Of a stretch of 49,882 bases of DNA, positions 8,101 to 11,100 are shown piece after piece (positions within the stretch are counted from its first letter, which is position 1; each line of letters starts with the position of its first letter). A program made the position numbers. Source of the stretch: Methanobacterium sp. (GTDB lineage Archaea > Methanobacteriota > Methanobacteria > Methanobacteriales > Methanobacteriaceae); the NCBI GenBank assembly GCA_003166335.1, contig PMWA01000045.1, positions 1-49,882 of the forward strand, given 5' to 3'.

Positions 8101-11100
8101 ATCCATAGCTGAACTTATAATAGGGATGTTGATTTCTAAATTTCGGGATACACTAGTTTTAGTTTTCACATCTTTCGGTTCGACAGAAGAAGCAGAAGGA
8201 ATTAATAAAAAATCATCGAAAGTAAATCCTTCTGGTGCGTTTTTTAACTTTTCAGAGAACATTTCTAATTTCACTACCCCTTAAAATATATTTACTACTT
8301 TTATTTCTTTATTATTAAATATCTTTCATGATTTAAAAGTTTTCTATTATCTGTTTTAGCCTAGCTACGGAGCTTCGATCAATATGTCCAGTGTTACGGT
8401 CACCACCTATACAAGCTGCTCCTCGTACTCCTACCACATCACAACCTAAAACTTCAAGTTTTTGAAGTTGTTCCTCTTTAATTGATCCTGCTAATGCACT
8501 TTTAAGCCCATAATCATGAGTTTCATTAGTAAAATATAGAATAGTCTCATCATCCATGAAATCAAATAATGTTTTATCATCTTTAACAGCAGTATCCACC
8601 ATGGCTAAATCGGCACCTGAATCATTGGCAACTCTGGGTATTTCTAATGGATCAACTGAACCTACCCGGTACGCATCAGCATAACCAGACGCCACAACCA
8701 GGGCATCTTCGTTTAAATCCTTAACAGCCCTCACAACATTCTCCATTACTTCCAAAGCTTCATTATAATTTTTAGTTCCGTATAATCCTACCTTTATATA
8801 ATCTGCACCAGACACCACGGCCCCTGCAGCAGCTAATGCTACTGTTCCAGGTTTATAGGGAACATCTCCTAGTGTTGCACTGACTTGCATGCCTTTGGGG
8901 GTTAATTCCCTTACACTCCTAATTACCCATGGAAAATTAGCTCCAAGAGATCCTTCTTTCGGATTTTTAACGTCAATTATATCGGCACCGCCTTCAATAG
9001 CTTCCAATGCTTCATCTGTATTTATTGGACTAATTAATAGAAGCAATTTCAAATACCTCCTACTTATTAAACAAATTAATCAACTTTTATATTTAAAATC
9101 TATGTCTTAAATTTATCTTCAAATCTTATAAAAAATCATAATGATTAAAATAAAGTATCATAAAAAAGGTGAACCTGTATCTTTGATTCTATCTGCAATT
9201 TTCCGATGCACTTCACTGCAAATATCAGAATCAACAGATTCTCTCCTTAATTCTTCAATTAAATAATTGATTCGAATTTCTAAAGGACATTCTATTGTAC
9301 AATGCCCGCATAATGTACAAGTGTAAAGTCCTGATTGTAAACATATTTTTTTATCTTTTACAAATCTACTGAAAACTACTCCTCTACCACCTAAGTGTCG
9401 TCTATATCCAAATTCATATCCCAATACATTATAGATGGGGCAGGATACTACGCAGCTACCGCAGCCAATACATAATAAACATTCTGGACAATCCTTTAAA
9501 GCTTTACTTCGACCATTATCCAAAAGAACGACCACAACTCTACTAGCTCCGTACATATCATTTAAATGAATTTGTTCTATATCAGCTGTTTTAGAAGGTG
9601 ATGAAATCACGTTAATATAAGCGGGAGCAGTTTTTCCAGATGCATATATAGTTTCCAGTTTAACTACAGAAATTGCTTCTTCAATGGTTTTAACTAATTT
9701 ATCAATCCCCACGATTATAATATGAGTATCCAACATGGAAACTAGGGTAATATTTCCCTCATTGTGTACCATTATCAGTGATCCGTCCTCTGCAGCTAAA
9801 GAATTAGCACCAGTTATACCTACTTTACATTTACTTAACTCCTCTAAAACGTTCTTACGGACTATATCCTGAATTTCCCTAGGTTCAGACTTCACATTCT
9901 GATTAAATTTCTTTGAAACTATTTTAGCAATTGCTTCCATAGTCAAATGTGAAGCAGGGCCAATAGGATGAGAGGACATTCTTTGAGGAGTAAATTGTAC
10001 AATTCTATCACCTAAATCTGTTTCAAGCACCTCAACCCCTTTATTTTCCAAAAAATCGAGAAGTCCAATCTCACCTGCAGTGTTGGACTTGGATTTAGCC
10101 ACTAATTTTTCAGTACCTATTATATTATAAATAGTATTAAGGGCTTCTTTTGAGTCTTCAGCAATGAAGACTTCAATTCCATTATCCTGCAGTTTTTTAA
10201 TCGCTATCTTTTGAAGTTCTTCTAAATGAGATATAGAATATTCTCTAATCTTTTTAACCACATCTTTAAGTTCACTTGTTTCTTCATTCTCTATTAATGC
10301 TCTTCTTCTCCTATCTAAAATACTGAAGGATCGGTTCATAGCATTAATTTCTGATGGATTCATGGATTCATTCATAATTAAGACCCATTAATAATAATTC
10401 TGATAAGTCAATAACCTTCAAATAATTGTGTTCTTTTTTAAGTGACTCAACTGCAGAAGTTAAATTTAATATACATAATGAACAGGAAGTAACTAGGATA
10501 TCAGCATCTATATCTTCAACATCTAATATTCTTTTCTGCGCGATTTTAAGACTTGTTTCAGGATAAGCTGATTTAACACCTCCTCCTGCACCACAACATT
10601 GTGATTTAAATTTATTTCTTTTCATTTCCACTAAATTCGCTGTGGATTCTAAAACATCACGAGGTGCCTGATATTCTCCACAATGCCTGCCCAGATGACA
10701 AGGATCGTGATAAGTAACTTTTAAAGAGGACTTATCTGGTTTTAGCTTTCCTTCTTCTATTAATTCTCTGAATAATTGTGAAGTGTGAATTACATCCAAT
10801 TCCACACCTAAAAACTTTTTATAATCATTTTTNNGTTTTCTTCATAACTTCAATAGCATCATTTTGGAAACCTGTTCTAAGAAGGAAGGAACCACAGCAT
10901 TCCTCGTTTTCAAGGATATCATAATCAACCCCAATATTATCTAGAATTTTCTTTGTAGCAAATTCGATATTATAAAGTTTTTTCCTGACTACACATCCCC
11001 TAAAATATATCATTCATTCACCAATTGAGTTTTAATAAAAATTTTAATAAAAAAATAATTCTTCTATTATAATCAAAAAATTAATTAATAAAAATATCTT

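Follow-up and report, generated by a model that had tools for sequence, protein, structure and literature searches.

Directly upstream of mfnB in a Methanobacterium genome lie two genes for iron-sulfur proteins, one with a LUD domain and the other with CCG domains. Their position raises the question of whether the pair serves methanofuran synthesis or another redox reaction of the cell. A preliminary description read the pair as a so far unrecognised oxidoreductase that makes the tail of methanofuran-a and is special to Methanobacteriales. Our analysis confirms its observations in part and partly supports its interpretation.

Locus layout and a scaffold gap

The window analysed here is a stretch of 49,882 nucleotides (contig PMWA01000045.1). 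Five genes in it lie co-oriented on the minus strand: the CCG gene (10368..11013), the gene for the LUD and 4Fe-4S protein (9158..10375), mfnB for 4-HFC-P synthase (8333..9052), guaB for IMP dehydrogenase (6775..8274) and a mobA-like nucleotidyltransferase gene (6095..6700). As described before, the mfnB product belongs to the equivalog family NF002573 (406 bits, cut-off 341), and the 405-residue LUD protein matches LUD_dom (E 1.2e-39) and Fer4_8 (E 6.5e-11). The CCG and LUD genes overlap by the 8 nt reported earlier; the spacing between the LUD gene and mfnB, given as 111 nt, is 105 nt when a TTG start is taken. The ortholog of the mobA-like gene in G121, a one-contig genome from another order of the class, matches MobA models by name with scores below cut-off. 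A promoter and terminator scan, designed for sigma-70, stayed at chance level (26 found, 26.7 expected). Contigs X15 and X16 from RNA libraries span parts of the CCG and LUD genes, which shows neither transcription nor a joint transcript.

The CCG gene had been described as split by a frame break. The apparent break is a scaffold gap, an NN at 10833-10834 and one of 131 two-N gaps of the assembly, at which contigs of runs X4 and X6 (DNA) and X16 (RNA library) have a bridge of 61 bases. The reading frame is restored because these 61 bases stand in place of the NN, giving a gene of 705 nt, or 234 codons and a stop, provided that the 61 bases contain no stop. Compared with the intact ortholog of genome G079, about 18 residues are absent at this site, and the gap takes in the CCG subunit's first CxxC motif. 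In all 20 relatives fetched, the CCG gene is a single open reading frame directly upstream of the LUD gene. On the strength of the gap, the bridging contigs and the intact relatives, we reject a pseudogene.

Architecture of the two subunits

The LUD gene is the only one in a genome that is 99.4% complete, as judged by a single PF02589 match. Its product is a LutB scaffold without DUF3390. Aligned with YkgF and YkgG of E. coli, it shows a LutC-type loop at residues 258-277 (9545..9604; S-K-T-A-D-I-E ... M-Y-G), which is found in YkgG (LutC) and missing from YkgF, so that the chain holds the motifs of LutB together with a loop of LutC. Two CxxCxxCxxxCP motifs (9287..9472; C302-C312 and C353-C363), invariant or nearly so in 150 sequences, match HdrC and may form an HdrC-like electron wire.

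The structural model of the LUD subunit (pLDDT 97) is closest in Foldseek to a LutB model (9a6l_B, TM 0.88), and it superposes on LutC (2g40) with a Z score of 17.0 and an rmsd of 2.6 over 158 aligned residues. A sequence search of the PDB returned no full-length solved relative. Predicted as a homodimer, the subunit scores 0.90 and the best of three controls 0.08; of 30 solved homodimers 20 attained the pass mark, and of 23 single chains one did. Between the homodimer runs, at least 98% of the contacts coincide at a pLDDT of at least 89, and residues 249-269, a stretch that overlaps the loop, are placed against residues 119-122, 139-142 and 205-208 in the partner copy. We model the LUD subunit as a homodimer in which the loop of one copy packs on a conserved pocket of the other. 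LutC crystallized as a dimer with a conserved cavity at its interface (PMC3924224), and the passing score may reflect likeness to this dimer (2G40). The lack of a LutC-like third subunit, already remarked upon, holds, and it may be explained by a LUD protein that has a LutC-type loop of its own and is modelled as a homodimer.

The His of the LutC motif G-x-H-G-P is proposed to be catalytic, following a docking proposal (PMC3924224). Its place is taken by Tyr275 in all 30 Methanobacteriales sequences compared; outside the order, the same column has His in 148 and Tyr in 14 of 243 sequences. Columns that are at least 90% conserved among the 30 sequences mostly match those of outside relatives and bring no new Arg or Lys, and Tyr275 is the clear exception. 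An outside genome, G436, has a pair split in the same order and also carries Tyr at this position.

The CCG subunit, of about 234 residues with the gap filled, has a Pfam CCG domain on each half, in agreement with the earlier assignment of such domains to both gene pieces, and two predicted non-cubane [4Fe-4S] sites of the TfrB/HdrD-like kind. TfrB (NF004898) is its best NCBIfam family, at 163.6 bits, and the ten cysteines, five per domain, are kept in 16 of 17 CCG orthologs. In HdrB, CoM and CoB are contacted by Arg14, Gly46, Gly198, Arg201, Phe233 and Arg240 (PMC13261682). Four of these six positions are largely kept in the orthologs: the places of Arg14 and Arg201 are basic in all 17, Gly198 is kept in 14, and Phe233 in 16, with Leu in the window protein. 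Gly46 and Arg240 are not kept; at Arg240 the organism's own HdrB also has Val.

The CCG subunit has a glycine motif of the GGGV[KR] type that recurs in the TfrB and the HdrB of the organism and in an HdrD-like protein. Since it is also common in fusions of mostly Thermoplasmata-type genomes (14 of 17), the motif is not specific for CoM or CoB. Among 57 fused representatives, nine carry this type and 26 the Lut type, to which YkgE belongs. In EtfD, CCG clusters are mere electron carriers without a catalytic role, a state marked by a Thr in place of a Cys and an extra His ligand (PMC13083937), and neither change is seen in the CCG orthologs. With the HdrB- and TfrB-type cysteines and most contact positions kept and the EtfD substitutions absent, the residues of the subunit favour thiol-disulfide chemistry, short of proving CoM and CoB as the thiols.

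The pair shares with LutABC (LldEFG, YkgEFG) the LUD motifs K-S-K-S, E-T-D-L-G, H..P, G-I-T-G and N-E-G-N, two cubane clusters, a CCG-CCG partner and the LutB-type fold. However, a separate LutC and DUF3390 are missing, the LUD chain stops where YkgF continues, and the LUD subunit scores 245.6 bits against a LutB cut-off (TIGR00273) of 444.8. Besides the Tyr for His exchange, the CCG partner retains both CxxC motifs and thereby differs from YkgE, in which the first Cys of either motif is gone and the glycine motif is of another type. LdhH, the large subunit of a quinone-linked L-lactate dehydrogenase (NF045670), has the same domain set, and the nearest outside relatives of the pair are such fusions. 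In contrast, the pair consists of two genes, CCG first, without a small LUD subunit, and reaches 237.6 and 115.4 bits against a cut-off of 800 (a fused relative, P0123, scores 384.2). Methanobacteriales are not known to have quinones. Because several features tested for membership in LutABC and LdhH are lacking, we set the pair apart from both.

The combination of 2[4Fe-4S] with two five-cysteine CCG domains recurs in TfrAB, HdrD and HdrBC. There the substrate module is an FAD protein or HdrA, whereas in the pair it is the LUD domain, and the cubane domain sits on the LUD chain; the organism's own TfrB and HdrB are encoded elsewhere in the genome. No sequence link ties the pair to any of MfnA-F, although it adjoins mfnB in most of the order. 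We assign it as a putative split LUD-2[4Fe-4S]-CCG2 enzyme, in which a LUD-type hydroxyacid dehydrogenase is joined to an Hdr-type thiol module. An lldEFG system has been described in Archaeoglobus (PMC3949148) and a model of LutA-B-C has been published (PMC10090944). The literature searched yielded no characterised member of this subfamily and no mention of the locus tags MTH139 or MTH140. The earlier view of a so far unrecognised Fe-S/CCG oxidoreductase is borne out by a pair that is uncharacterised and present in 108 of 121 genomes of the order.

Relatives and candidate substrates

Outside the order, the nearest relative comes from Methanofastidiosum, a LUD-FeS-CCG2 fusion with 42% identity, followed by proteins of Bathyarchaeota, Thermoplasmatota and Archaeoglobi. 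A scan of named genomes gave 475 relatives, of which 80 were kept for locus analysis; these come from Dehalococcoidia, Nitrospirota, Methanoperedens, Thermoplasmata and Archaeoglobi. A separate LutC is found in none of the 80 loci, many of which are short, the YkgG matches in 59 of them all falling inside the LUD gene. CCG matches occur in 19 loci, 17 as fusions of more than 600 residues, and in 61 there is none. In a FastTree built from 125 of 273 collected sequences and rooted at the midpoint only, the 14 Methanobacteriales sequences form one clade (support 100) within an 81-sequence clade (97) of outside relatives, and E. coli YkgF falls elsewhere. Members of the subfamily, either as fusions or as split genes, are found in genomes of Thermoplasmata, Chloroflexota and Nitrospirota, which contradicts its description as special to Methanobacteriales.

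A lactate permease was found in none of 44 genomes searched, and full-length LarA in none of 43 Methanobacteria; the substrate of the pair is thus probably internal to the cell. Imported lactate is rejected by the permease result. LUD operons have been linked to L-lactate oxidation (PMC3924224), and the lactate moiety of F420 is proposed to derive from lactaldehyde (PMC8498797, PMC3087415). The model for lactaldehyde dehydrogenase, CofA (NF040648), matches in 108 of 109 genomes of the order outside one genus (g9) and in one of 12 inside it, where the pair is in none. In two g9 genomes, the aldehyde dehydrogenases present are non-orthologs with 30-33% identity. MfnB forms an enzyme-bound methylglyoxal enol intermediate (PMC11365854), and this chemistry offers a candidate reason for the neighbourhood of mfnB and the pair.

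Our preferred reading, to which we give about an even chance, is an endogenous, soluble, LutC-free 2-hydroxyacid oxidoreductase, most likely acting between L-lactate and CoM-S-S-CoB and probably composed as LUD2-CCG2. Two LUD subunits would pair, the LutC-type loop of one completing the LutB-type pocket of the other, as modelled. The LUD subunit, with its two cubane clusters, would hand electrons on to the non-cubane clusters in the CCG partner, as judged from the likeness of the pair to HdrC/HdrB and TfrB, and the latter clusters would reduce the heterodisulfide or, in reverse, oxidize CoM-SH and CoB-SH. L-lactate would be formed in the cell from lactaldehyde by CofA, the lactaldehyde possibly being supplied by methylglyoxal that leaks off MfnB. 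The enzyme would either convert lactate back into pyruvate or govern how much lactate is available for F420. Either direction would be possible, the redox potentials of pyruvate/lactate (about -190 mV) and the heterodisulfide (about -140 mV) being close.

Several points count against lactate. The LutB and LdhH scores lie far under their cut-offs, and Tyr275 replaces the His of LutC. The joint loss of CofA and the pair is a single lineage event, shared with MoaC (0/12 in g9), and CofA is kept without the pair in G121, G060 and G083. The loss of HdrB Gly46 and Arg240, the Leu at Phe233, the unspecific glycine motif and the possibility of EtfD-like carriers weigh against CoM-S-S-CoB as its partner.

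The same architecture and thiol coupling could act on another 2-hydroxy or 2-oxo acid (malate, 2-hydroxyglutarate, glycolate or sulfolactate), a reading that we find conceivable but rather unlikely. It would accommodate the His-to-Tyr change, and outside relatives have suggestive neighbours: malate dehydrogenase (loci L161 and L163), a racemase of the LarA family that exceeds the malate racemase cut-off (L126), glutamate-synthase-like FMN proteins in 12 and NrpR-type regulators in eight of the 80 loci. G436, whose split pair shares the Tyr, holds four LarA homologs. However, no such neighbour is shared with Methanobacteriales, and the characterised LUD systems covered by the literature examined all oxidize lactate. 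The glutamate-synthase-like link itself was discarded: it is seen in Nitrospirota, Chloroflexota and one Hydrothermarchaeota locus, and the organism's own genome holds only a 24% match.

Occurrence in the order and the link to mfnB

Among 121 genomes of Methanobacteriales, we found a near full-length LUD ortholog in 108 and mfnB in 119. In the 108, mfnB lies within 600 nt of the LUD gene in 67, and 0.6-10 kb are inserted between them in 25, so that 92 have both within 10 kb. The two are on separate contigs in 12 genomes and more than 50 kb apart in two closed chromosomes; in two more, mfnB was not matched. These counts are in line with the earlier finding of adjacency in 172 of 327 genomes, although calling the pair welded to mfnB overstates it.

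In genus g9, mfnB is present and the LUD gene absent in all 12 genomes; a LUD family search was empty in the five tried, and mfnF is present in the four tested. The g9 genomes lack a detectable MoaC and carry 2-4 copies of MtaB, traits given for Methanosphaera (PMC6120340, PMC13135261), and for this reason we infer that g9 is Methanosphaera. A 234-residue CCG-CCG protein of g9 was excluded as an ortholog by its 24-30% identity and scattered positions. G121, which is presumably Methanothermus, has an intact block of glycosyltransferase, mfnB, guaB and mobA genes from which only the pair is missing, and its CCG proteins are only of TfrB and HdrB size. LUD was also not matched in four drafts of other genera (G060, G132, G168 and G185; 92-98% complete); G013 has an interrupted LUD frame and a CCG protein with one cysteine changed. 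Because genomes with mfnB and mfnF lack the pair, it is not needed for the methanofuran core. The earlier caveat that guaB also adjoins mfnB is well founded: mfnB-guaB is a steadier block than the pair with mfnB, since the two stay together in the eight loci viewed in full and in G121, including loci without the pair.

That the pair makes the methanofuran-a tail, as first proposed, is poorly supported, and we consider it improbable. The order would have recruited a self-sufficient LutB/LutC hybrid with a His-to-Tyr change in its loop, and CoM-SH and CoB-SH would, through the CCG subunit, drive the reduction of an oxoacid or enoate on the way to the hexanetetracarboxylate tail, much as in TfrAB. 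The adjacency to mfnB, the near-universal presence of the pair in the order and its monophyletic clade with a Tyr275 of its own fit this proposal. Methanofuran-a ends in a tetracarboxylic acid (PMC6926001), and the enzymes for terminal methanofuran moieties are stated as unidentified in PMC8141765; no enzyme of this kind is named in the methanofuran literature found through searches of listings. The inferred Methanosphaera, which does not reduce CO2 (PMC6120340), might need no tail. No LUD family match was found in the controls M. jannaschii and M. acetivorans, an absence that fits the tail and lactate readings equally.

Several comparative results speak against a role in the tail. mfnB is kept in g9 and G121, and mfnF in g9, without the pair. 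Conversely, relatives from the subfamily lie in settings without an mfnB match: the gene was detected in none of the 80 outside loci (many of them short), and in none of 34 bacterial and Thermoplasmata-type genomes (incomplete MAGs) among 46 subfamily-bearing genomes searched. In that search, mfnB was present in eight of nine Methanoperedens and both Archaeoglobi genomes, and as a fragment in one Hydrothermarchaeota bin. Both CCG-LUD pairs of G436 are on contigs other than that of mfnB, and no order-specific basic residue appears among the conserved columns. A tail pathway would be expected to lose further genes along with the pair, yet ATP-grasp_3 and HMGL-like genes are not co-lost, their sets (at least three and four, respectively) being complete in eight pair-less genomes among 24, a weak argument. 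In strain Marburg, the tetracarboxylic acid of methanofuran-a is also present as a solute in free form (PMC1224877).

Similarly improbable is that the pair serves molybdo- or tungstopterin-dependent CO2 reduction, or that its CCG subunit relays electrons to another partner without thiol chemistry: the loss of the pair together with MoaC in g9, where mobA is also gone from the mfnB locus, the mobA gene downstream in the window, the many outside LUD loci without a CCG gene and the precedent of EtfD point that way, but MoaC is present without any LUD match in G121, M. jannaschii and M. acetivorans, and the EtfD changes are missing from the CCG orthologs.

The lineages without the pair provide a cheap natural test of the tail question: were the pair a tail enzyme, both would make tail-less methanofuran, and it would be the first enzyme of the tail and, beside TfrAB, a second anabolic sink for methanogenic thiols. 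If instead our preferred reading of a lactate:heterodisulfide oxidoreductase is true, the pair represents a new wiring, in which a LUD-type hydroxyacid dehydrogenase and the pool of heterodisulfide are connected, and it would be at work in the principal methanogens of the rumen, gut, peat and digesters. Our homodimer model hints at the place of the unsettled LUD active site, where the loop of one copy meets the pocket of the other, and a two-gene system would be simpler to study than LutABC.

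Neighbourhoods of LUD genes outside Methanobacteriales

Stand-alone genes for LUD/4Fe-4S proteins adjoin genes for glutamate-synthase-like FMN proteins of 520-560 aa in Nitrospirota, Chloroflexota and one Hydrothermarchaeota bin (loci L054, L059, L060, L061, L065, L066, L069, L071, L084, L094, L098 and L107). This neighbourhood is a link across phyla, and an NrpR-type regulator or glutamine synthetase is often also present at these loci.

One group within the Dehalococcoidia has its LUD gene after selA-selB (loci L067, L073, L078, L086, L099, L108 and L111), an order that may reflect synteny by inheritance. 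At two further loci (L161:354-3662 and L163:480-3622), an LUD gene whose product carries a LutC-type loop is flanked by malate dehydrogenase and a 300-aa gene, all in the same orientation. A search of the latter against NCBIfam gave no match.

Assembly gaps and MtaB in the genome of the window

The assembly contains 131 two-N gaps. Two further ones in the window, at 3347-3348 and 21569-21570, are intragenic and would likewise mimic frame breaks; the genes affected appear, from inspection of their sequences only, to be HD-domain-like and GDP-sugar dehydratase-like, respectively. The genome has one gene for the methanol methyltransferase MtaB (C53:12035-13414).

An orphan CCG-CCG protein and CofA in genus g9

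Genomes of g9, a genus with mfnB that lacks the pair, encode an orphan CCG-CCG protein of 234 aa at scattered genomic positions (L145:5612-6316, L146:5295-5999, L147:5544-6248, L148:5131-5838 and L149:5716-6420). No LUD gene was found in the g9 genomes bearing this protein. Since CofA, the lactaldehyde dehydrogenase proposed to supply lactate for F420, was found in only one of the 12 g9 genomes, this genus may obtain the lactyl part of F420 by a different route.
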